From IMG/VR virus record IMGVR_UViG_2867339791_000001, positions 71,046-112,121 of that record: 41,076 bases of DNA. The stretch is one strand, 5' to 3'. Origin of the DNA: a virus. The notes below the pieces were generated by a model. The model was given only the letters and a program-made list of their open reading frames with translations. It made no database searches and was not told the origin of the DNA. Numbering within the stretch: position 1 is the first letter of the stretch; each line of letters starts with the position of its first letter. Shown in pieces: positions 20,727-41,076 of this stretch. A program made the translations under genes and the position numbers.

Positions 20727-20783
20727 TTGTTATTGCCACCGCGCCAGGGTTGCCGTACCGTCGGTGATGTCAGCGCTACTCGG
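20717..20783 (+). promoter_or_regulatory. Putative tRNA-array promoter (degenerate copy F of the element module)
   Basis: AACTCGGTAGTTGT-TA-TTGCCA(20733)-17-TACCGT(20756)-CGGTGATGTCAGCGCTACT. Confidence 0.65.
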
Positions 20784-20874
20784 CGGGCGGGCCGGTGGAC
20801 GGAAACTCCGTTGCTGGTTTGCCCGCCGGGAGCCTACGGTCTTCACGAACCGATCCACTGAGGAGTAGCCGGTC

Positions 20875-20991
20875 ATGATGCGCCACACGACCCCAGAACC
20901 GCAGCAGCGGGTGTCGCTGCGCGGTGGGTGGTGCGTGGACATCGCCGCAAGCTCCGTCGACAACTTCAAGCTCGGTAGGTGGCGCGGCTGA
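20875..20991 (+). CDS. Putative 38-aa leader peptide (uORF) of the tRNA-array attenuator
   Basis: GAGGAG RBS at 20860; MMRHTTPEPQQRVSLRGGWCVDIAASSVDNFKLGRWRG*. Confidence 0.7.
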   Translation: MMRHTTPEPQQRVSLRGGWCVDIAASSVDNFKLGRWRG

Positions 20992-21011
20992 CCGCGAGTC
21001 CCCCAGGACAC

Positions 21012-21056
21012 GGAAGCCGCCCACCCAGCCAAGGGGTAGGGCGGCTTTCTCGTTCT
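21012..21056 (+). terminator. Intrinsic terminator/attenuator hairpin before the first tRNA
   Basis: GGAAGCCGCCC(21012-22)/GGGCGGCTTTC(21039-49) with TTTCTCGTTCT tail; alternative pairing with 20978-20989. Confidence 0.75.
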
Positions 21057-21070
21057 CGGCACAAGTCCAT

Positions 21071-21142
21071 AGGGGTGTAGCTCAGCGGCAGAGCAGCGAT
21101 CTCCAAAGTCGTGAAGCGCAGGTTCGAGTCCTGTCACCCCTG
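21071..21142 (+). tRNA. tRNA-Trp(CCA)
   Basis: Cloverleaf; gcgat-CTCCAAA-gtcgt. Confidence 0.92.
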
Positions 21143-21176
21143 CTCAACGTCCCGGCCCTCGCGGTCGGCTCGGCGA

Positions 21177-21199
21177 TGATCATTGAGAACTCCACAGCG
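21177..21199 (+). promoter_or_regulatory. rrn-like boxA antitermination element
   Basis: TGATCATTGAGAACTCCACAGCG resembles the actinobacterial rRNA-leader TTGAGAACTCAACAG; preceded by a small hairpin. Confidence 0.65.
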
Positions 21200-21262
21200 G
21201 ATGGCATACAGACGACACCCGGCCGGCGGCAGCACCGCCGTCGCCGGCCGGGGAGTCGGAAT

Positions 21263-21335
21263 GGGCTTGTGGCGCAGCTGGTAGCGCGCCGCTCTGGCAG
21301 AGCGGAGGTCCCCGGTTCGAACCCGGGCAGGTCCA
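21263..21335 (+). tRNA. tRNA-Ala(GGC)
   Basis: Cloverleaf; G3:U70. Confidence 0.93.
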
Positions 21336-21343
21336 CACATCAT

Positions 21344-21416
21344 GCCCACCAAGCTCAGGTGGTAGAGCGCGCCCCTGAAAAGGGCGAGGCTCCCGGTTCG
21401 ACGCCGGGGGTGGGCA
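21344..21416 (+). tRNA. tRNA-Phe(GAA)
   Basis: cgccc-CTGAAAA-gggcg. Confidence 0.92.
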
Positions 21417-21466
21417 CGTTGGCGGGGTCCGCTGGCTGCGGACGGCGGAACCCCGCCAGCTCCAAT

Positions 21467-21541
21467 CGGCCGTTGGAGCTGCCTGGAAAGCTCGTCACGC
21501 TCTCAACGTGAAGATCACGGGTTCAAATCCCGTACGGCCGA
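21467..21541 (+). tRNA. tRNA-Glu(CTC)
   Basis: tcacg-CTCTCAA-cgtga. Confidence 0.88.
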
Positions 21542-21553
21542 CGCAACGCCCAT

Positions 21554-21626
21554 GCGGTCCTGGTGAACTCGGCGGACACGCCGGTCTTCCAAACCGGAGA
21601 AGCGGGTTCGATGCCCGCGGGCCGCT
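21554..21626 (+). tRNA. tRNA-Gly(TCC)
   Basis: ccggt-CTTCCAA-accgg; U73. Confidence 0.88.
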
Positions 21627-21755
21627 CGGAGGGCAGGGAAAGGGGGCGGCGGACGCCGCGAAACCCGAGGCCGGGTTGCGCAGCCCGGTCAACGGCCGCG
21701 CGGGGTCGCTCCCCGTGGCAGCGCGGAAGGTCACCGCCCCTGCTCCCTGCCCCGA
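21626..21755 (+). ncRNA. Unassigned ~130-nt structured RNA within the array
   Basis: Closing stem GGGCAGGGA..AGGGGGCGG/CCGCCCCT..TCCCTGCCC enclosing two hairpins. Confidence 0.45.
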
Positions 21756-21761
21756 CCACGA

Positions 21762-21833
21762 TGGGGGCTCGGCTAATCGGCAGGCCGCCTGATTTTGGCT
21801 CAGGTCGTGGGGGTTCGAGTCCTCCGTCCTCAG
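21762..21833 (+). tRNA. tRNA-Gln(TTG)
   Basis: cctga-TTTTGGC-tcagg; U1:A72. Confidence 0.9.
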
Positions 21834-21838
21834 CTCTC

Positions 21839-21913
21839 GCCCTGCTACCCCAACTGGCACGAGGGCGCCAGCTCAAACCTGGTGTGTTGGCGGTTCGAGT
21901 CCGTCGCAGGGCA
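21839..21913 (+). tRNA. tRNA-Leu(CAA), short variable arm
   Basis: gccag-CTCAAAC-ctggt. Confidence 0.88.
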
Positions 21914-21918
21914 CTCAT

Positions 21919-21996
21919 GCCGTCGTAACTCAGCCTGGCCAGAGCGCCGACCTGGTACGTCGGAGGCCGCCGGTTCGAATCCGGCCGTCGGCTCCA
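21919..21996 (+). tRNA. tRNA-Thr(GGT)
   Basis: ccgac-CTGGTAC-gtcgg; encoded CCA. Confidence 0.9.
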
Positions 21997-21997
21997 T

Positions 21998-22070
21998 GCG
22001 GTTGTAGCGCAGTTGGTAGCGCGCCACCTTGCCATGGTGGAGGTCGCCGGTTCGAACCCGGTCAGCCGCT
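21998..22070 (+). tRNA. tRNA-Gly(GCC)
   Basis: ccacc-TTGCCAT-ggtgg. Confidence 0.93.
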
Positions 22071-22074
22071 CTCG

Positions 22075-22093
22075 TTGACAGATCATCTGTCAA
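22075..22093. promoter_or_regulatory. Perfect palindrome upstream of the HNH gene
   Basis: TTGACAGAT-C-ATCTGTCAA. Confidence 0.5.
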
Positions 22094-22170
22094 TTCGTCA
22101 ACCACCGTTGGAACGTCACCCCGGCGCTCCAACACCACCGCCGGTCCAGTTGGAAGAAGGGAGGGACCTG

Positions 22171-22614
22171 GTGGACGTCGTACTTGTCATCAACGCCGAC
22201 CTCGGGCCCCTCCACCGGGTCACCGTCGCCCACGCGATCCGGATGCTGTGCCGCCGGGTCGCCGAGATCCACGAAGCCGAGCCGGACCGGCTCATCGGCG
22301 TGTTCCCCATGCCGAAGGTCGTGCGGCTCGTCCGTTACGTGGTCACCCGGTGGCGGTACAGCAAGGGTCCCGCCTGGTCGAAGTCGGGCGTGCTGGCCCG
22401 TGACGGCCGTCGGTGCGGCTACTGCTCCGGCCCGGCCGCGACCGTCGACCACATCCTGCCCCGCTCGCGGGGTGGGCAGAACACCTGGCGGAACACCGTC
22501 AGCGCGTGCGCGCCCTGCAACCAGGCGAAGGGCGACCGGACCCCGGCCGAGGCCGGCATGGTGCTGCGCATCACGCCGCTTGTGCCGTCGTGGGGGTCGC
22601 TGGCGCAGCGCTGA
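22171..22614 (+). CDS. HNH endonuclease
   Basis: AAGGAGG RBS and GTG; RDGRRCGYC...TVDHILPRSRGG..TWRNTVSACAPCNQAKGDR. Confidence 0.93.
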   Translation: MDVVLVINADLGPLHRVTVAHAIRMLCRRVAEIHEAEPDRLIGVFPMPKVVRLVRYVVTRWRYSKGPAWSKSGVLARDGRRCGYCSGPAATVDHILPRSRGGQNTWRNTVSACAPCNQAKGDRTPAEAGMVLRITPLVPSWGSLAQR

Positions 22615-22648
22615 CCCGGCCGGCGGGCCATCACCCCGCCGGCCCCGA

Positions 22649-22722
22649 TGCGGGCTGGTGCAATCTGGCAGCACGTCCGGCTCTGGACCGGAAGGTTGGA
22701 GGTTCGAGTCCTCCGCCCGCAG
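22649..22722 (+). tRNA. tRNA-Gln(CTG)
   Basis: tccgg-CTCTGGA-ccgga. Confidence 0.92.
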
Positions 22723-22728
22723 CTCAAT

Positions 22729-22804
22729 GCCCTCGTAGCCCAGCGGTAGAGGCGACGGTCTGAGGGGCCGTACAGGGCAGGTTCGAGTCCTGCCGAGGGC
22801 ACCA
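22729..22804 (+). tRNA. tRNA-Leu(GAG), short variable arm
   Basis: acggt-CTGAGGG-gccgt; CCA. Confidence 0.9.
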
Positions 22805-22805
22805 T

Positions 22806-22880
22806 GCCGGCGTAGCTCAGCGGCAGAGCAACTGCCTTGTAAGCAGCGTCGCGCCGGTTCGACTCCGGCCGCCGGCTCCA
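22806..22880 (+). tRNA. tRNA-Thr(TGT)
   Basis: ctgc-CTTGTAA-gcag; CCA. Confidence 0.9.
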
Positions 22881-22985
22881 CAACCTGCGCATTCGTTGTC
22901 GCGGATGTCCGCCCGGGGCGGGTGGCCGCTCCCCCACGATGACGTCGGGGGGCGAGATGAGCGGCGTTCGCAGCGAGCGCGGGCG

Positions 22986-24056
22986 GTGAGCCCGGCCCGG
23001 CGCCGGGCGGAGGGGCCAGCCGACCCGAGGCTGCGCCGCCCGGTTGCGCCGATGCTCGCCGCGCCCGTCGACCAGGTGCCCGAAGGGCCCGGCCTCATCC
23101 ACGAGCCGAAGTGGGACGGGTGGCGGGCGATCGCCTTCCGGGACAGCGACGGCGTGTACCTCCAATCGCGCGCCGGCCGGAACTTGACCACGTACTTCCC
23201 GGACATCACCCGGGCGATCCGGTCGGCGATCCCCGCAGGGGCGGTGCTCGACGGCGAGCTGATCGTGTGGGAGCGGGGCCGGACCAACTTCGCCCAGCTC
23301 CAACGCCGGATCACGGCCGGCCGCGGCCTGCTGCGGCTGGCCCGCGACTGCCCCGCCCACTACGTGCTGTTCGACGTGCTCGCCGACGCTGGCGGGGAGG
23401 TGGTCCTGGACCTGCCGCTGTTCGAGCGGCGGGCCCGGCTGGAACGGCTCCTCGCCGACGCTCCCCCGACGCTGACGCTCACGCCGCAGACCACCGACAT
23501 GCGGCAGGTGTCTGACTGGCTGATCCACTGGACCGTTGCGACGGGCATCGAGGGGGTCGTGACGAAGCGGCTCGCCGGCAGGTACGAGCCGGGCCGCCGG
23601 GGCTGGTCGAAGTTCCGCACCCGGGTCTTCACGGAGGCCATCGTGGGCGGGGTGACGGGCAGCCTCCGCAACCCGGACACGGCTCTGCTGGGCCGGTTCG
23701 ACCGGCGCGGGAAGCTCCGCTACACCGGCCGCACGCACCCTCTGACCGTCGAGCAGAGGGCCGACCTCGCCGCGGCGCTCTCCCCGCTTCGGCCGTTGCA
23801 GCGTCGCGGCGGAACCGTGGTGCACCCGTGGCCGCAACCGCTACCGGCCGCCTGGTCGGGGCAGCTCGACCGGCCCGAACCGCTGCGGTACGTGCAGGTC
23901 GAACCGACCGCCGTCGTCGAGATCGACGCTGACGTGGCGTTCGAGCACCAGCGGTGGCGGCACAGGGTCAGGTTCAGCAGGACCAGACCGGACATGTCGA
24001 TCTACGACGTGCCGTTGGTCCTCGGTGAGGAGAAGGGCTACTACGGCGAGGCGTAG
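22986..24056 (+). CDS. ATP-dependent DNA ligase (LigC-like; start uncertain)
   Basis: PMLA, EPKWDGWR (adenylated Lys), LDGELIV, FDVL, EGVVTK, YEPGRRGWSK. Confidence 0.93.
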   Translation: MSPARRRAEGPADPRLRRPVAPMLAAPVDQVPEGPGLIHEPKWDGWRAIAFRDSDGVYLQSRAGRNLTTYFPDITRAIRSAIPAGAVLDGELIVWERGRTNFAQLQRRITAGRGLLRLARDCPAHYVLFDVLADAGGEVVLDLPLFERRARLERLLADAPPTLTLTPQTTDMRQVSDWLIHWTVATGIEGVVTKRLAGRYEPGRRGWSKFRTRVFTEAIVGGVTGSLRNPDTALLGRFDRRGKLRYTGRTHPLTVEQRADLAAALSPLRPLQRRGGTVVHPWPQPLPAAWSGQLDRPEPLRYVQVEPTAVVEIDADVAFEHQRWRHRVRFSRTRPDMSIYDVPLVLGEEKGYYGEA

Positions 24057-24080
24057 CCGGCCCTCGATCACTGGGAACAT

Positions 24081-24153
24081 GCCGGCGTAGCTCAACTGGC
24101 AGAGCACGCCCCTCGTAAGGGTGAGGTTGCGGGTTCAACTCCCGCCGCTGGCT
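24081..24153 (+). tRNA. tRNA-Thr(CGT)
   Basis: cgccc-CTCGTAA-gggtg. Confidence 0.92.
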
Positions 24154-24158
24154 CTCAC

Positions 24159-24232
24159 GCCGACGTAGCTCAGGTGGTCAGAGCGCTCCGCTCATAACGG
24201 AGAGGCCCCCGGTTCGACACCGGGCGTCGGCA
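24159..24232 (+). tRNA. tRNA-Met(CAT), elongator (Ile2 not excluded)
   Basis: ctccg-CTCATAA-cggag; paired 1:72. Confidence 0.88.
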
Positions 24233-24243
24233 CGCAACATCAC

Positions 24244-24327
24244 GCGCTCGTGGTGGAACTCAGGTAGACACGCCGGATTCAGGATCCGGTGCCGGAAGGC
24301 GTGGGGGTTCGACTCCCCCCGAGCGCA
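24244..24327 (+). tRNA. tRNA-Leu(CAG)
   Basis: ccgga-TTCAGGA-tccgg; long variable arm. Confidence 0.93.
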
Positions 24328-24332
24328 CGCAT

Positions 24333-24408
24333 GGGGTCGTAGCTCAGTTGGTAGAGCATCCCGTTCGCACCGGGAAGGCCAGCGGTTCGATTCCGCTCGG
24401 CTCCACCA
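24333..24408 (+). tRNA. tRNA-Ala(CGC)
   Basis: tcccg-TTCGCAC-cggga; G3:U70; CCA. Confidence 0.93.
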
Positions 24409-24409
24409 T

Positions 24410-24485
24410 GCCCTGTCGGTCCAGTCAGGAGTGGACGCCGGATTGTCAATCCGGAGATTCGCGGGTTCAAATCCCGTACGGGGCG
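24410..24485 (+). tRNA. tRNA-Asp(GTC)
   Basis: ccgga-TTGTCAA-tccgg; G73. Confidence 0.92.
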
Positions 24486-24490
24486 CGCAT

Positions 24491-24581
24491 GGAGGGGTGG
24501 CATGAGCGGTCTATGGCGCTGCCCTGCTAAGGCAGACCGGAGGCAACTCCGGCCCGGGTTCGAATCCCGGTCCCTCCGCCA
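24491..24581 (+). tRNA. tRNA-Ser(GCT)
   Basis: ctgcc-CTGCTAA-ggcag; long variable arm; CCA. Confidence 0.92.
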
Positions 24582-24582
24582 A

Positions 24583-24658
24583 GCCGTCGTGGCCAAGTCC
24601 GGTTAAGGCACCTCGCTGATAACGAGGAGATGCGCTGGTTCGATTCCAGCCGACGGCA
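24583..24658 (+). tRNA. tRNA-Ile(GAT)
   Basis: cctcg-CTGATAA-cgagg. Confidence 0.92.
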
Positions 24659-24673
24659 CGCAGCAATTTTCTT

Positions 24674-24746
24674 GCCCCCGTAGCTCAGCGGACAGAGTGT
24701 CTGGCTACGAACCAGAAGGCCGCAGGTTCGATTCCTGCCGGGGGTA
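24674..24746 (+). tRNA. tRNA-Arg(ACG)
   Basis: tctgg-CTACGAA-ccaga. Confidence 0.93.
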
Positions 24747-24751
24747 CGCAT

Positions 24752-24823
24752 CGGGACGTGGCGCAGGGGTAGCGCGCTGGTCTGGGGGACCAGAGGACGG
24801 GAGTTCGAGACTCCCCGTCCCGA
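24752..24823 (+). tRNA. tRNA-Pro(GGG)
   Basis: ctggt-CTGGGGG-accag; C1:G72. Confidence 0.9.
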
Positions 24824-24828
24824 CTCAA

Positions 24829-24902
24829 CGGGTACTAGCTCAGCTTGGGAGAGCGCGCCCTTCGGGAGGGCGAGGCCGGGGGTTCAATTCCCTCGTACCC
24901 GA
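24829..24902 (+). tRNA. tRNA-Pro(CGG)
   Basis: cgccc-TTCGGGA-gggcg. Confidence 0.92.
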
Positions 24903-24907
24903 CTCAT

Positions 24908-24990
24908 GGAGGGTAGCGCCCAGTGGTGGGCAACCGGCCTCGAAAACCGGGCCGCTGGAAACGGCGAGGGTTCGACTCCTTTACCTTCCG
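24908..24990 (+). tRNA. tRNA-Ser(CGA)
   Basis: Anticodon loop CTCGAAA; long variable arm; G73. Confidence 0.87.
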
Positions 24991-25829
24991 CGTTTGCCGG
25001 CGAGGCAGATCAACGCCCGATCGACGGCTCCACAGCGGCGCGACTTCAACCACGGCCGCAGTTCCGGGAGCAGTTCGCGCAGCTCGTTGATGCGGCACAC
25101 GTTCCACGTCGCGGTTGGACGCCACTTCTCGTTCCGTGACGGCCGCTCATAAACGCGCCCCATGCCGGTCGCTGAGTGAAGCCGAACGATGGTGTCTAGA
25201 TCGGTCGAGTTCACTCCGAGAGACACGTCACCTCGGGCGGAGACGCTGATGCAGCCCTCACCTTCGACGATGCCGGCGACCCACGGGATGTGTTCGGCAG
25301 ACGTCAACTCCCGCCGGGCGGGGAAGGTGGCGACTGGTTGCCCTCCGGCTAACCAGAGGCCGACGGCAGCCGAACGGCGACGATGACCGAGTAGCGGTGC
25401 GACTTCCGCGACCAGCCAAGCCGTGTGCGAATGAGCGTTGACGGTCCAGTACCACGAGGGCTTATGTGCACGGTTCCTCGGTGTGTACGCATTGACCGTA
25501 CCTACCCCCGTCATCTGGTGGGCGTCGCTGATGACGTCCTGGTCCGTCATCTGGACCCGGACGCGGGGTGCACCCTCCTTTACCAGGAAGGTCCCTTCGC
25601 CTTCGAGGAGCCCAGCCAGCCACGCTCGCTGGTCTGCACGTAGTTTCTGCGGGGCTGGTCGCTCGCGGTTGCAGGTCGCGCACTGTACTGACTTGCGGTC
25701 CATCGGTGCGCCACACGCGCACCGCCACTTCAGCTTCAGACGCTGGTAGCGGCAGGGCTCGCATTCACGCCGCCGGTCAGCTGACCAGTAAGGCTTGCCG
25801 CAGGTAGCGCATCTGGGCTGGTTTGTCAC
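24981..25829 (-). CDS. Zn-ribbon plus double-motif LAGLIDADG homing endonuclease 1
   Basis: CxxC repeats; AWLAGLLEGEGTF and PWVAGIVEGEGCI; GTG 6 nt after a TATTGT -10. Confidence 0.88.
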   Translation of the reverse strand: MTNQPRCATCGKPYWSADRRRECEPCRYQRLKLKWRCACGAPMDRKSVQCATCNRERPAPQKLRADQRAWLAGLLEGEGTFLVKEGAPRVRVQMTDQDVISDAHQMTGVGTVNAYTPRNRAHKPSWYWTVNAHSHTAWLVAEVAPLLGHRRRSAAVGLWLAGGQPVATFPARRELTSAEHIPWVAGIVEGEGCISVSARGDVSLGVNSTDLDTIVRLHSATGMGRVYERPSRNEKWRPTATWNVCRINELRELLPELRPWLKSRRCGAVDRALICLAGKRGR

Positions 25830-25874
25830 CCATACACAATACCCTATGCGTGAGGGCCTTTCCCTCTCCGCCAA

Positions 25875-25946
25875 GCCTCCGTAGCTCAGAGGAAGAGCAA
25901 CCGACTCTTAATCGGTGGGCCGGGATTTCGAAATTCCCCGGAGGCA
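25875..25946 (+). tRNA. tRNA-Lys(CTT)
   Basis: accga-CTCTTAA-tcggt. Confidence 0.92.
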
Positions 25947-25952
25947 CAGTAC

Positions 25953-26025
25953 GCCCCGCTAGCTCAGGGGATAGAGCAGCAGTTTCCTAAACTGCGTGTC
26001 GCTGGTTCGATTCCAGCGCGGGGCA
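25953..26025 (+). tRNA. tRNA-Arg(CCT)
   Basis: gcagt-TTCCTAA-actgc. Confidence 0.93.
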
Positions 26026-26031
26026 CAGCAC

Positions 26032-26103
26032 GGGCCGCTAGCTCAGTGGTAGAGCTGCCGACTTTTAATCGGAGTGTCCAGAGTTCGATCCTCTGGCGGC
26101 CCA
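26032..26103 (+). tRNA. tRNA-Lys(TTT)
   Basis: ccga-CTTTTAA-tcgg. Confidence 0.92.
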
Positions 26104-26105
26104 CT

Positions 26106-26180
26106 TGCGGGATGGCGCAGTTATGGAAGCGCGCTGGGCTCATAACCCAGAGGCCGCCGGTTCGAATCCGGCTCCCGCTC
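26106..26180 (+). tRNA. Initiator tRNA-fMet(CAT)
   Basis: ctggg-CTCATAA-cccag (three G:C pairs); unpaired 1:72. Confidence 0.88.
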
Positions 26181-26182
26181 CC

Positions 26183-26254
26183 GCCCCGGTAGTTCAGTGG
26201 GAGAACGCCGCCTCGACAAGGCGGAGGTCGCTGGTTCGACACCAGCTCGGGGCA
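26183..26254 (+). tRNA. tRNA-Val(GAC)
   Basis: ccgcc-TCGACAA-ggcgg (C33). Confidence 0.9.
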
Positions 26255-26259
26255 CGCAA

Positions 26260-26333
26260 CGCGCGTTCGGTTATGGGTAGGCCCTGGGTCTTTCAAGCCC
26301 ATGAAGCGGGTTCGAGTCCCGCACGCGCGACCA
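26260..26333 (+). tRNA. tRNA-Glu(TTC)
   Basis: tgggt-CTTTCAA-gccca; CCA. Confidence 0.88.
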
Positions 26334-26334
26334 T

Positions 26335-26411
26335 TCCGGTGTCGCCCAATCGGTAGGGCAGCGGACTGTTAATCCGTACAGGTACAGGTTCGAGTCCTGT
26401 CGCCGGAGCCA
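26335..26411 (+). tRNA. tRNA-Asn(GTT)
   Basis: gcgga-CTGTTAA-tccgt; CCA. Confidence 0.92.
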
Positions 26412-26412
26412 A

Positions 26413-26484
26413 GCCCGTGTAGCTCAGCGGCAGAGCACCGCTCCCACACAGCGGGTCGCCCTGGTTCGAGTTCAGGTACGGGTA
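26413..26484 (+). tRNA. tRNA-Val(CAC)
   Basis: ccgct-CCCACAC-agcgg (C33). Confidence 0.87.
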
Positions 26485-26504
26485 CTGGCCTTCGGGCCGC
26501 AGTT

Positions 26505-26578
26505 GTGGCTGTAGCTCAATGGGAGAGCGGCGGGTTGTGGCCCCGCAGATGCCGGGTCAGTACCGGCCAGTCACCCCA
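26505..26578 (+). tRNA. tRNA-His(GTG), atypical
   Basis: gcggg-TTGTGGC-cccgc; C73 and CCA; T-loop GTCAGTA; no encoded G-1. Confidence 0.82.
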
Positions 26579-26579
26579 A

Positions 26580-26661
26580 GCGCGTCGTGAGCGGCTGGTC
26601 GCTCCCCCGTCTGTAAAACGGGCGCCTTACGGCACGCCTGGTTCAAGTCCAGGGACGCGCA
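26580..26661 (+). tRNA. tRNA-Tyr(GTA)
   Basis: cccgt-CTGTAAA-acggg; long variable arm. Confidence 0.88.
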
Positions 26662-27493
26662 CCGAGACCAAGCGATCGACAGCGATCGTCCGGCGAGACA
26701 GCATCCACGGCCGGATGGCGTCGAGGAAGGGCAGGAGGAGGCCCTTTCGATACAGCTGCCACCTGTGCGCGGGTCGGTGGTTCTCTTTGCCCCGCTTCGC
26801 GGCCGTGATCGAGCCACCACCTGCGAGCTGCGCCAGCCGCTCAAGGACGTCGAGGTCGGTCGACGTCACCTCCAGGTAGGGCGGCCCAATCCACCCCTCG
26901 CCTTCGACCAGCCCGGCCGCCCATGCCGCCCCCGCCGGATCACTTAGGGTGTACGGCCACGAAGGGCTGGGCAGGGTGGGCGGGTTAGTGAAGTTGCTGA
27001 CGAGGAGCGTTGCAGCCTCCCGTCGTCGTGCGGAGAGCAGCGGACAGATCTTGGTCACCAGCCAAAAGAGGTCGTCGCGCCGCTGAACGGTGAGGATCCA
27101 CGACGGCTTGTGATGGTCAACCTTCGGGGTATACGGCCGGACCCGGGGAGCAAACGGCAAGTGCTCGGCCAGTGTCTCGATCACGTCGAGGTCGGTCATC
27201 TGAACGCGGACTACGCCTCCTCCGGACCGCCTCCGCACGAAGGTCCCCTCGCCCTCGATCAGACCAGCAATCCAAGCCAGCCGGGCCTGATCGGGCTCAT
27301 CGACAATCGGCGTACTCCCGTACGCGCACGACCGGCACTGCTTGGCCTTCAGAGACTTCGGTGACCCGCACGAGCACGGGGCCTTCGCCTGCTGCCTTCG
27401 GTACTCACAGGCACTGCACAGGCGGTGCCTGCTGGTGCGGATGAATCGCCGAGAGCAGCCGTCGCAGACTCGCGTGCCGATTGAGTCGACCAT
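26627..27493 (-). CDS. Zn-ribbon plus double-motif LAGLIDADG homing endonuclease 2
   Basis: CxxC repeats; AWIAGLIEGEGTF and AWAAGLVEGEGWI; ATG 6 nt after a TATAGT -10. Confidence 0.88.
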   Translation of the reverse strand: MVDSIGTRVCDGCSRRFIRTSRHRLCSACEYRRQQAKAPCSCGSPKSLKAKQCRSCAYGSTPIVDEPDQARLAWIAGLIEGEGTFVRRRSGGGVVRVQMTDLDVIETLAEHLPFAPRVRPYTPKVDHHKPSWILTVQRRDDLFWLVTKICPLLSARRREAATLLVSNFTNPPTLPSPSWPYTLSDPAGAAWAAGLVEGEGWIGPPYLEVTSTDLDVLERLAQLAGGGSITAAKRGKENHRPAHRWQLYRKGLLLPFLDAIRPWMLSRRTIAVDRLVSVRVPGLEPGVP

Positions 27494-27535
27494 GGAATCA
27501 CTATAGGCGCAGCAGGTCCCCTTCGCCTGCACCAT

Positions 27536-27608
27536 GCCCTCGTAGCTCAGCGGATAGAGCACCGGCTTCCGGAGCCGGCGGTCGGCCGTTCGAATCGGTC
27601 CGAGGGTG
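27536..27608 (+). tRNA. tRNA-Arg(CCG)
   Basis: ccggc-TTCCGGA-gccgg. Confidence 0.92.
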
Positions 27609-27613
27609 CGTAC

Positions 27614-27687
27614 GGTCGCATGCCCGAGTGGTCAGGGAGCCGCCTGCAAAGCGGCGCACCGGGGTTCGAGTCCCCGTGCGGCCTCCA
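27614..27687 (+). tRNA. tRNA-Cys(GCA)
   Basis: gccgc-CTGCAAA-gcggc; U73 and CCA. Confidence 0.92.
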
Positions 27688-27853: not shown

Positions 27854-27888
27854 GTCCAGATCACCCCGACGAAAGGCCGGTGACCGGC

Positions 27889-30486
27889 ATGGCGACCCAG
27901 ACCCGCACCCAGACCGCCCGGACCCGGCCGGCCACCCTCGTCCGGGTGCTCCTGCGCCGCCGAGGCACCGTCTACGTACCCGCCGGCACCGACCAGTTCA
28001 ACCCGGACGCGCGGCCGGGCGTGACCCTGCTCGAAGCCGACCTGGCCGAGCGGGGCTGGCTGCTGTCCCAGCCGCTGCGCGACGCCCTGCTGCGTCTCGA
28101 CACCGTCGACCTCACTGCCCTCGGCTCTCGGCTGCTCGCCGACTGCGACGAGCTGGTAGGCGGCGGCCGTGACCACACGCCGCTGTTCCGGCGCTTCCCC
28201 GACCGGGTGCCCAACGACACCCTCGGCCTGTTCGTCGACCGGATCCTCACCGCCTGGTTCCAGGAGCCCACGCAGCCCTGCGTGCTGTGCTTCGCGGCCG
28301 GCACCGTCCGGCCGGTCAACCCGTGCGGGCACCTGGTGTGCGGTGACTGCTTCCGGCCGGCGGACTACTCGGCCTGCCCGATCTGCTACCGGCAGCTCGA
28401 CCCGGCGGACCCGTACCTGGCCGCCGGCGAGCCGGCCGTCGAGGACCGGCCGCGCGAGCCGCGCGAGGTGACCGGCCCCGCGCCGGCACGCCTCCGGGTG
28501 CTGCACCTCGGCGGCGGCCTGCTCGCCCAGGTGCGCGCCGAGGTGCTGTCCCTGCTCGCCCGCCCCACCGCGCTGCCGCCGGCCGACGCCGACGACCTGG
28601 CCGTCATGCTGGCCGGCCTCGACCGCACCGACGTGTCGTGGCTGCCCGCCGCCGTGCCGGGCCGGGAGACGAAGGCCCGCCTGCTGGCGTGGCTGCTCGC
28701 CGACCCGGTCGACCCGGCCGTGGTGGAGGCGCACGTCACCGCGCTGGTCGACACCGCCACCGACGTGCTGCGGTTCCTCGTCGCCCGTTCGGGCGGTGAG
28801 TCGCTGATCGACCGGCCGCGGATCGCGCCGGTCGCCCGGCCGCTGCGCCGGGTGCTGCTGGCCGCCCTCGACCGGATGGGCGTGGTGCAGCTCGTCGAGG
28901 ACATGCGCCGGCACCGTCGGGCGTGGATCGCCGTCGGTGAGCGGCTGCACCCGGGCGAGCACGCCGGCCGGTGGCCGAATGTTGCGCTGGCGTTCGCCGC
29001 GCTGCGCGGCACCACCCTGAACCAGGTGCAGGCCGCAGCGCTCATGCTCAACGACCGCACGGCGAGCGCGGAGCACGTTCATGTCCGTGACGGCCGGGTG
29101 CTGATCGCCGTCCGGGCCCGCCGGGTCGAGGAAGCCCTGGCGGCCCGTGACCTCACCGCCGCTCTGGGTGCCCTGCGCGCCCGTCCGGGTGAGCTGCTGC
29201 GCCGCGCCGACCACCTGCTGCGCATCGGCGCCGGCCGTCACAACGCGCTGGTCGAGGAGATCGGCCGCGCGGCCCGGCAGGCCGCCCCGGCGGTGATCCT
29301 GTCGGCCCTGGGTGAGATCCGCACCCGCGCGGTCGCCCACGACCAGCGGGTGTTCTTCCCCGCCGGCCGCACAGGCACCGCGCACGTCGTCGAGGACGCT
29401 CGCTCGCCGCTGGCCCCGCACCTGGTCGGGCAGGCGGAACGGGCGCTGAAGGCCGCCCTGTTCGAGCGTGCCGCTGCGCTGCCGGCCGTCGACCGGGCCG
29501 TGGTCGACACCGACTTGGAGGGCATCATCGCCCCGTTCACGGAGCGCACCGCCGCCCGCGCCCTGGTCACCCTGGCCCGCGGTTCGGTCCTGCCGATCCC
29601 GGCCGGCCAGGTCGTGCGTCTGTTCCTGCACTGGATGGAGTCGGAGCAGCGGGTCGACCTGGACCTGTCGGTGGCCGTCTACAGCAAGACGTGGGAGCAC
29701 GTTGGCACCTGCGACTTCACCAACCTGCGGCTGCCCGGGGCCGTGCACTCGGGTGACTTCACCAGCGCCCCGGCACCGCGCGGCGCGTCGGAGTTCATCG
29801 ACCTGGACGTGGACGTCCTCGCCAAGCAGGGCGGCCGGTACGCGGTCATGTCGGTGCTCAGCTACAACAACGTGCCGTTCCTCGACATGGCGGAGGCGTT
29901 CGCCGGGTTCATGGTCCGCGACCAGCTCGGCGGCCGGCGGGAGCCGTTCGACGCGCGTGCGGTGGAGCAGCGGTTCGACCTGACCGGCCCCGGCAAGGTC
30001 ACCATCCCGTTCGTCGTCGACCTGCACGCTCGGACGATGCGGTGGCTCGACGTCGCCGCGAAGGTGACCGGCACCAACCACGCGGTGCACCGCCACGCCG
30101 ACCAGTTCTCCACCGTGGCGCGAGCCTTGGTGGCCTCGTTCGAGGCGGGCGGCCGGGTCACCCTCGGGGAGCTGGGCCGGTGGATCGCCGCCGCCCGCGC
30201 CCGCGAGGTGATCGTGCGCAGCCCCGCGGGCATGACGCTGTTCCGGCGGGCCGACCACGAGTCGGTGTCGACATTCGCGCTGCGGCTGCGCACCGGGCTC
30301 AGCTCGTCGCCGGCCACGGCGGAGGACGCCGCGTCGGCCGCGTTGCAGTTCGTGGCGCGCGGTGACCTGCCGACGCCGGACGGCGCGGAGGTGTACGCGC
30401 TGCACCCCGGCCAGCTCGACGCGGGCCGGGTGCGGCTGCTGGCCGCACCGGACGTGCCGGCGATGCTTGCCCCTCCGGGGCCGTAG
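27889..30486 (+). CDS. Prokaryotic RING-finger plus TerD-like protein (MXAN_6230/SCO0854-like family)
   Basis: CVLC..PCGHLVCGDCF..YSACPIC RING; TATDVLR, RPGELLRR; C-terminal RVDLDLS..HSGDFTSAP..GASEFIDL TerD-like region. Confidence 0.85.
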   Translation: MATQTRTQTARTRPATLVRVLLRRRGTVYVPAGTDQFNPDARPGVTLLEADLAERGWLLSQPLRDALLRLDTVDLTALGSRLLADCDELVGGGRDHTPLFRRFPDRVPNDTLGLFVDRILTAWFQEPTQPCVLCFAAGTVRPVNPCGHLVCGDCFRPADYSACPICYRQLDPADPYLAAGEPAVEDRPREPREVTGPAPARLRVLHLGGGLLAQVRAEVLSLLARPTALPPADADDLAVMLAGLDRTDVSWLPAAVPGRETKARLLAWLLADPVDPAVVEAHVTALVDTATDVLRFLVARSGGESLIDRPRIAPVARPLRRVLLAALDRMGVVQLVEDMRRHRRAWIAVGERLHPGEHAGRWPNVALAFAALRGTTLNQVQAAALMLNDRTASAEHVHVRDGRVLIAVRARRVEEALAARDLTAALGALRARPGELLRRADHLLRIGAGRHNALVEEIGRAARQAAPAVILSALGEIRTRAVAHDQRVFFPAGRTGTAHVVEDARSPLAPHLVGQAERALKAALFERAAALPAVDRAVVDTDLEGIIAPFTERTAARALVTLARGSVLPIPAGQVVRLFLHWMESEQRVDLDLSVAVYSKTWEHVGTCDFTNLRLPGAVHSGDFTSAPAPRGASEFIDLDVDVLAKQGGRYAVMSVLSYNNVPFLDMAEAFAGFMVRDQLGGRREPFDARAVEQRFDLTGPGKVTIPFVVDLHARTMRWLDVAAKVTGTNHAVHRHADQFSTVARALVASFEAGGRVTLGELGRWIAAARAREVIVRSPAGMTLFRRADHESVSTFALRLRTGLSSSPATAEDAASAALQFVARGDLPTPDGAEVYALHPGQLDAGRVRLLAAPDVPAMLAPPGP

Positions 30487-40138: not shown

Positions 40139-41076
40139 ACGCCGCGCATCACGTCGATGTTGTCGTAGGCGCGCTGTGCCCGTCGTCCCCGGGCGGCCGA
40201 CCCGTAGTGCAGGAGCATCTGCCTGGACTCCCACCCGTTGAGTTCCATCAGGTCGCCCTCGGCGCCGCCCGCGTCCAGCCAGTTGTGGGTGAACGTGTGC
40301 CTGAACAGGTGCGGGTGGACCTTCAGGCCGATCCGTGCACCTCGCCGCTTGACGATCTGCCGCACCCCTGACGGCGTCATCGGCACGTTCCGGCGCACGC
40401 CGATCCACAGGGCTTTGGTGAGCTTCGCCGCCGAGTGCTCGGACCGCTTCCGCAGGTACCGGTCGAGGGCGAGGGCCGCCTTGGCGTCGAACTTGACGGT
40501 GCGTGTCCTGCCGCCCTTGCCGGTAACCACGGCGGTCCGCTTCGCCACGTCGACATCGTCGAGGTCCAGGCCGGTGATCTCGGCGAGTCGGCAGCCGGTC
40601 GCGGCGAACAGCCTCATGAGGGCCGCATCGCGGCGGTCCTCATAGGTCTTGCCCTTCTCCGCGTCCTTGATCAGCGCGGCGAGCTGTTCGGTCTCGATGA
40701 TCGGCTTCGGCTCGGCGCCAACCTTGACCGGCGGCGGGGGCTTGAACTTGTCGAACGGGTCGACCGTGTCCTCTTCCTCGGCGTACCACTTGAAGAACGC
40801 TTGCAACGCGCGGCCGATGTTGTTGCGGTAGCCGCGGGCGTACTCGATCTCCTGCATGTGGGCGAAGAACTGGCGCAGCTCGTCGCGGGTTACCTGCGCC
40901 CACGACCGGATGTCGGTTTCGCGCAGCAGCCAGCCGGCGAACCAGGATGCCGCGTCGGTGTAAATCTCCCTCGTGCGTTCTGACCGTTCGGCGACTTGGA
41001 GTGACAGCCGGAACGAGGCGATCCACGGGGCGAACGAGCCGAGGTCTTCTGGTAGGTCACCGCGCCGGCTGGCCAT
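40135..41076 (-). CDS. Tyrosine recombinase/integrase
   Basis: TGCRLAE (R), TGKG (K), HLFRH (HxxR), NGW, HY (Y); N-terminal SAM-like domain. Confidence 0.95.
   Translation of the reverse strand: MASRRGDLPEDLGSFAPWIASFRLSLQVAERSERTREIYTDAASWFAGWLLRETDIRSWAQVTRDELRQFFAHMQEIEYARGYRNNIGRALQAFFKWYAEEEDTVDPFDKFKPPPPVKVGAEPKPIIETEQLAALIKDAEKGKTYEDRRDAALMRLFAATGCRLAEITGLDLDDVDVAKRTAVVTGKGGRTRTVKFDAKAALALDRYLRKRSEHSAAKLTKALWIGVRRNVPMTPSGVRQIVKRRGARIGLKVHPHLFRHTFTHNWLDAGGAEGDLMELNGWESRQMLLHYGSAARGRRAQRAYDNIDVMRGV

Follow-up and report, generated by a model that had tools for sequence, protein, structure and literature searches.

Why mobile elements bear near-complete tRNA arrays, and when these arrays are expressed, are long-standing questions. 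They are raised again by the window analysed here, a stretch of 41,076 nucleotides of the IMG/VR virus record IMGVR_UViG_2867339791_000001 (positions 71,046 to 112,121), in which a tRNA array with its leader is carried by a prophage of a Micromonospora, a soil bacterium. The prophage comprises 114 kb of lower GC content, is bounded by a 47-bp att repeat with copies at C2:928558 and within tRNA-Val at C2:1042724, and has its terminase at C2:956257. A PHROGs search with ten ORFs of the window returned no match. The array and its surroundings contain the following features:

21071 to 27687, plus strand: array of 35 tRNA genes called by ARAGORN, Trp first, covering all 20 amino acids
22171 to 22614, plus strand: HNH endonuclease within the array (Pfam PF01844/PF14279)
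26580 to 26663, plus strand: tRNA-Tyr(GTA), anticodon loop read directly; homologous arrays have Tyr at the same position
40198 to 40698, minus strand: tyrosine integrase domain (PF00589) at the right end of the prophage, adjoining a copy of the att repeat

An earlier note, made from the sequence of the window, had described a complete set of 35 tRNAs. ARAGORN reproduced this number, but its call of Phe(aaa) at 26580-26663 was rejected because the anticodon is GTA, i.e. Tyr, and the array therefore covers 20 of 20 amino acids. It decodes 51 of the 61 codons and is redundant with the host, which carries its own tRNA set elsewhere in the genome. The array also harbours an ATP-dependent DNA ligase gene (23052-24056) and, between tRNA genes, two antisense LAGLIDADG-like genes (24981-25874 and 26627-27562, minus strand), which are missing in the compact 36-tRNA array of L216. 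A Prok-RING_4 protein of the MXAN_6230/SCO0854 family is encoded directly 3' of the array (27880-30486), as it is in L197. As a marker for arrays this gene was rejected, since the regions of up to 16 kb that were searched ahead of 11 distant homologues contained no array.

The single bacterial array that we found to have known control is that of Anabaena PCC 7120, which uses a repressor. There, the trn operon (L-array), rtcB and an HNH gene are repressed by TrcR, an RHH repressor with a direct-repeat operator that has been described for cyanobacteria, and the L-array is induced by translational stress and co-regulated with rtcB and the HNH gene (PMC8421152, PMC10272220). Like the system studied here, it is a silent, horizontally acquired array, and the same trio of trn, rtcB and HNH genes recurs, here joined by a common leader; in contrast to that leader, control in Anabaena is exerted by a DNA-binding repressor. 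The string 'attenuat' is absent from the text of PMC8421152, and a literature search covering few subscription journals yielded no publication on a tRNA array under leader-peptide attenuation. For mycobacterial array units, which resemble the window in being mobile arrays with HNH genes in Actinomycetota, no promoter or regulation has been described (PMC5966550), and the array of the Mycolicibacterium plasmid pCBMA213_1 does not possess the leader presented here. Judging from sequence comparison, we consider it likely that the prophage tRNA operon is gated by transcription attenuation under ribosome control, with a test sequence that is deliberately complete, and the array would then probably be made only during ribosome trouble. 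The leader comprises these elements:

20802 to 20840, plus strand: WhiB7/WblC-like promoter with the box GAAACT (20802-20807), 3 nt, the -35 element TTGCTG (20811-20816), an 18-nt spacer and the -10 element TACGGT (20835-20840)
20860 to 20865, plus strand: Shine-Dalgarno sequence (SD) GAGGAG of the uORF, ahead of the start at 20875
20875 to 20991, plus strand: leader ORF (uORF) of 38 codons, the candidate sensor, with 19 of 20 amino acids (no Tyr) and 30 distinct codons
20974 to 20989, plus strand: predicted 5' strand of the antiterminator in the last uORF codons, pairing with 21015-21030 according to folding and swap tests
20983 to 20996, plus strand: small hairpin over the stop codon, compatible with the terminator and recurring in homologues with changed sequence
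21012 to 21056, plus strand: intrinsic terminator with a stem at 21012-21049 and an imperfect U-rich tail; homologues mostly have 4-5 U

The SD-led uORF was found as the earlier note had claimed it, including its position, its length and its amino acid and codon counts. An Rfam search of the window gave only tRNA matches at the gathering score and no T-box or other leader family.

The published WblC consensus is GAAAWY-3nt-TKGMNN-TANNNT with a spacer of 16-19 nt (PMC7157823). In the window, five of six positions of the box agree with it, leaving one mismatch, and the other elements fit exactly. The promoter is conserved in the alignment of 17 same-genus loci, and we infer a transcription start near 20847-20848. 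An A/T-rich box was present in 27 of 31 lineages compared to 50 of 357 background sites (14%), whereby the most A/T-rich candidate was chosen per leader. The host encodes a WhiB7-like protein (wblC) at C3:364935, the promoter of which has a like form. Furthermore, rtcB of S. coelicolor is induced 320-fold, shows a WblC ChIP peak and ranks among the top WblC targets (PMC7157823). On these grounds it is rather probable that WblC controls the array promoter. It is possible but less likely that the same attenuator follows a plain sigma-A promoter which does not depend on WblC and has a proximal UP element. A proximal UP subsite nearly coincides in position with the WblC box, which in the window is one mismatch off GAAAWY, and the top ranks that these leaders reached with our promoter weight matrix are circular, as the matrix was trained on the same leaders. 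Against this stand the match of spacing, -35 element and spacer lengths with the published consensus, the shared form of the host wblC promoter and the position of S. coelicolor rtcB as a top WblC target.

Upstream of this promoter lies one further candidate:

20733 to 20761, plus strand: second promoter-like site with a -35 element at 20733-20738, a 17-nt spacer and a -10 element at 20756-20761 (promoter scan match C2:1022116)

This putative site is possibly a phage-controlled promoter. An inverted repeat surrounds the -35 element of the WblC-like promoter (20780-20828) and is retained with different sequence in L002 and L003; it could form an RNA hairpin in a transcript from the upstream promoter or serve as an operator. 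Elsewhere, at C1:1583328 (plus strand) in G000, a gene which we take, from reading its N-terminus, to be ribonuclease Z-like is preceded by a WblC-like promoter and a leader of approximately 290 nt bearing a very short ORF and a hairpin.

The RNA downstream of the promoter is predicted to adopt two alternative structures. The terminator hairpin (21012-21049) has a folding energy of −28.8 kcal/mol (z −4.5); its U-tract is imperfect, and a simple terminator scan missed it. Nascent RNA spanning 20962-21034, by comparison, folds into the antiterminator (−34.9 kcal/mol, z −3.8), which takes up the entire 5' arm of the terminator. The core of this duplex is formed by 20978-20989 with 21015-21025 and is extended by 20974-20976; pairing between tail and arm exceeds chance (p = 0.007). 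The predicted folds thereby confirm the mutually exclusive pairing of uORF tail and terminator arm that had been proposed for these positions. When lineages are compared, the terminator arm finds its best partner in the uORF tail in 30 of 35 cases, and the antiterminator test failed for L235 from Curtobacterium. In one leader alignment the stems hardly vary, so that pair counting gave only two double changes there; we therefore turned to a swap test across lineages. Tails pair more strongly with their own arm (−18.8) than with arms of other lineages (−17.4; p < 5e-5), the terminator behaves likewise (−21.5 for its own arms, −19.5 when swapped), and clear double changes in the stems occur in L255, L039 and L333. 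Both stems, in which the earlier note had suggested looking for covariation, thus covary in this test.

In a ribosome-footprint masking model, the antiterminator stays intact as long as the A-site codon is no further than about 31, is weaker at 32-33 and is gone from about 35. The idea that a stall at almost any codon frees the antiterminator is thus upheld for most codons; at the last 5-7, a stall would leave it unfreed. At equilibrium, the terminator is favoured by approximately 10 kcal/mol on the full-length RNA. As it always wins there, the choice of the switch must be kinetic. The host wblC leader, analysed as a control, showed the same equilibrium and masking pattern and the same geometry, including an identical distance of 23 nt between stop codon and terminator.

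This similarity extends to the known whiB7/wblC attenuator of Actinobacteria, whose transcription attenuation by a uORF was reportedly treated by Lee, Lee and Roe in 2022. Like the array leader, it has a WblC-type promoter, an SD-led uORF, an antiterminator in the uORF tail and a terminator approximately 20 nt past the stop codon, but it governs a regulator gene, whereas the array leader precedes tRNAs. The whiB7/wblC-like logic invoked by the earlier note is thus borne out in geometry and lacks a counterpart in sequence homology, as the array leader profile did not match the host wblC leader at E ≤ 10. The array leader would function like the wblC attenuator, without being its sequence homologue. 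Classical leader-peptide attenuators such as trpL, hisL and the multivalent thrL and ilvL contain runs of one to three amino acids and precede biosynthetic genes. They share with the leader of the window that the position of a ribosome chooses between terminator and antiterminator, but they rely on tandem control codons, while the window uORF holds about one copy per rare amino acid, contains no run of more than two identical residues and stands before tRNA genes.

Phage transcription could provide a different explanation: the terminator would act as a constant barrier, which phage antitermination or the upstream promoter would overcome in lytic growth, and the uORF would serve only to couple translation or to encode a small peptide with a function of its own. 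We regard this as very improbable. It would fit the location in a prophage, the second promoter-like site at 20733-20761, the prevalence of the terminator at equilibrium and the following motif:

21183 to 21197, plus strand: rrn-leader boxA/boxC-like motif after the first tRNA, which has TTGAGAACTC in common with the rrn-type leaders of the genome

However, this motif is located downstream of the terminator, the peptide is less than 30% identical between lineages apart from the tail dictated by the RNA, the tail covaries with the arm, and the leader persists at host rtcB and HNH genes without phage context. The same 15-mer also occurs in the array of pCBMA213_1, which is without a uORF attenuator, and a search of 300 other genomes found it in two of them. 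The motif may help polymerase processivity once the array is open.

We aligned 17 loci of the same genus over promoter, SD, uORF end and terminator and built a leader profile. It detected two more copies in the same genome:

C9:34295-32659: host rtcB leader (L038), followed by tRNA-Glu and then rtcB
C3:899586-900289: lone HNH paralogue (C3:899852) with its own leader (L039)

Both kinds of copies are widespread in Micromonospora. The earlier note had mentioned neither these host copies nor the WblC-like character of the promoter nor the location in a prophage. Further loci were chosen by their protein (rtcB or HNH) and not by the leader, so that no selection on the leader was involved. Of 34 same-genus rtcB loci picked in this way, 32 had the leader, compared to none of eight rtcB loci of other families. 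It also stood ahead of lone HNH genes in more than 20 genomes and ahead of most Trp-first arrays that were located through their HNH gene in metagenomes and on IMG/VR contigs. Plasmid arrays of Curtobacterium and Arthrobacter have the same layout without matching the leader profile. The expectation that homologous arrays carry uORF and antiterminator thus holds for most Trp-first arrays but not for all: no such leader was found in the Mycolicibacterium plasmid array, the IMG/VR arrays L332 and L337 and the phages Atuin and Nanosmite. Among the matches listed from a genome-wide pattern scan, those outside the Micromonosporaceae are mostly chance. The unpublished genomes G067, G591, G615, G650 and G662 entered search tallies only, and no claim is based on them.

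Each of the 91 parsed leaders has its first SD-preceded start 33-45 nt past the -10 element, in frame with a stop 13-24 nt before the terminator (GGAG ahead of the start, likewise present in 91 of 91, was a requirement of the parser). The position of the uORF, for which conservation had been predicted, is therefore conserved. As lengths vary from 25 to 69 codons and start, frame and stop position are kept despite indels, the fixed stop is the pattern that would be expected from selection for translation to a set point. The longest case, an rtcB uORF in L182, was extended to 69 codons by a 12-nt tandem repeat, with frame and stop position retained. Several arrays show further peculiarities. The Trp-first array of the Arthrobacter phage Atuin (L395), which is without the leader uORF, has an embedded Ro-like RNA-binding protein; the Curtobacterium plasmids L235 and L236 carry a WhiB-family gene 4-7 kb upstream of the array, L236 also an RNA ligase gene downstream of it; and in the IMG/VR array L334 an HNH-like ORF separates the leader from the first tRNA-Trp.

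In whiB7/wblC attenuators, the codon content of the uORF sets what is sensed, and the whiB7 uORF of M. smegmatis contains every amino acid except Cys (PMC10274678; reviewed in PMC11550727). We compared amino acid content with chance. The 19 types of the window uORF exceed the 14.7 in nucleotide shuffles (p = 0.002), the 14.6 in windows of host genes (p = 0.008) and the 16.4 in codon-position shuffles (p = 0.036). The number of distinct codons given the peptide shows no excess (30 versus 27.8 expected, p = 0.15), so that the diversity beyond GC-matched sequences anticipated by the earlier note exists for amino acid types in array leaders, but not for distinct codons in the window. That about 27 of the 30 codons are readable by array tRNAs turned out to be chance level, as 51 of 61 codons can be read by the array in any case. 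Isoacceptor switching was likewise not established for the window uORF alone (p = 0.08-0.15; tRNA classes covered, 27 versus 24.5 expected, p = 0.08) and emerged only across lineages, where uORFs of arrays cover 26.7 classes versus 25.0 ± 0.2 under permutation, a test inflated by the shared ancestry of the lineages. Over-dispersion of tRNA classes at the isoacceptor level thus has moderate support from these sequences.

Thirty-five array lineages with less than 55% peptide identity, including the Curtobacterium and Arthrobacter plasmids, were compared. Their uORFs contain on average 18.7 of 20 amino acids, and without the last six codons 18.5 types versus 14.6 expected, with p < 0.05 in 29 of 35 lineages. 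For rtcB leaders of 19 lineages, treated in the same way, the values are 14.2 and 13.0, with two of 19 significant; the excess over GC-matched nulls is therefore confined to the array leaders. All three uORFs of the Curtobacterium plasmid arrays reach 20 of 20 amino acids, those of Arthrobacter 19 and 20. Two predictions of the masking model also agree with the sequences. Trp in the ribosome-masked tail is duplicated upstream in 23 of 24 lineages versus 10.4 expected. An internal Met, which is decoded by elongator tRNA, is present in 29 of 35 array lineages versus 11.5 expected (rtcB, 4 of 19). Neutral decay from 20 of 20 types to 40% identity would leave 16.5 types, with 8% of simulated cases at 19 or more, compared to 21 of 35 observed, and rare residues are spread over 15-27 different alignment columns. 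Inheritance alone is thus insufficient as an explanation. Residue composition separates these leaders from the known ones as well: the wblC uORF of the host has 84 codons, 18 types and is Ala-rich, whereas array uORFs have 18-20 types in approximately 42 codons, no enriched residue and a mean of 3.8 Ala. Typical uORFs of the whiB7/wblC kind contain 25-40% Ala, the window uORF 2 of 38.

These observations have to be weighed against a real attenuator that is a generic translation-coupling sensor of ribosome antibiotics, in which completeness is ancestral or a by-product of the lower GC content of mobile DNA. Array uORFs have 69% GC, rtcB leaders 77%, and the residues absent from the latter are the A/T-rich ones; leaders with 11-17 types still have the switch at rtcB and HNH genes; and within a set of 19 close Micromonospora leaders, residues present once are conserved no better than repeated ones (19.3 types versus 19.1 expected). 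The excess nevertheless persists in GC-matched and codon-position-matched shuffles and tops neutral decay, rare residues change columns, and the specific expectations of Trp duplication and internal Met are borne out. We therefore consider the generic sensor improbable. In favour of the complete test sequence, the short clusters L010 and L016 (2 and 6 tRNAs) from the window's own clade have 12-13 types. Against it, the uORF of the Nonomuraea plasmid array with 35 tRNAs comprises 31 codons and only 15 types, and some short arrays retain 17-19 types. Taken together, the comparison indicates that all five elements, from promoter and SD to uORF, antiterminator and terminator, have been conserved jointly, and that a near-full stock of amino acids is kept where a stall would matter.

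The leader tree, rooted at its midpoint, places the main rtcB leaders as one clade (98/100) nested within array leaders. They are followed by few or no tRNAs and then rtcB, and L197 contains a full array that includes rtcB. The rtcB operon of Micromonospora would accordingly be a shrunken array in which the switch survived and the complete test sequence disappeared, a direction that we infer from the nesting. Diversity dropped separately in L010/L016, L061, L121 and the lone-HNH leaders, and the host rtcB and lone-HNH loci look like array remnants.

Under the attenuator with a complete test sequence, a ribosome trailing RNA polymerase to the stop codon would cover the antiterminator strand, the terminator would fold and transcription would end near 21050. 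If a ribosome is held up anywhere from about codon 2 to codon 31, be it by a cleaved, depleted or uncharged tRNA or by a ribosome antibiotic, the antiterminator would fold first, and the polymerase would enter all 35 tRNAs. The host WblC may boost initiation under the same stress, which would add a second layer of control. As extra tRNA is no cure for amino acid starvation, selection was more likely driven by tRNA loss or ribosome inhibition, and the sequence alone would fit both. The wider reading, to which we give an even chance, is that the uORFs of arrays on actinobacterial prophages and megaplasmids, approximately 42 codons long and with every amino acid and many isoacceptors, are a selected checklist of the entire tRNA pool. 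Any tRNA loss, e.g. through a host anticodon nuclease or toxin, would then call up a full replacement set, and Micromonospora would later have domesticated the switch for the tRNA-repair ligase RtcB.

What appears to be new is the application of an attenuator mechanism of the known whiB7/wblC kind to a tRNA array, with a complete test sequence. If the leader is indeed selected for every amino acid, the array would answer a failure to decode any codon. The idea of tRNA replenishment would thereby become testable codon by codon in cultured Micromonospora, Curtobacterium and Arthrobacter. The leader would represent a compact, general sensor of translation failure, for which high amino acid completeness in a short ORF may serve as a search signature, and it would allow the takeover of a phage switch by a host repair gene to be traced.
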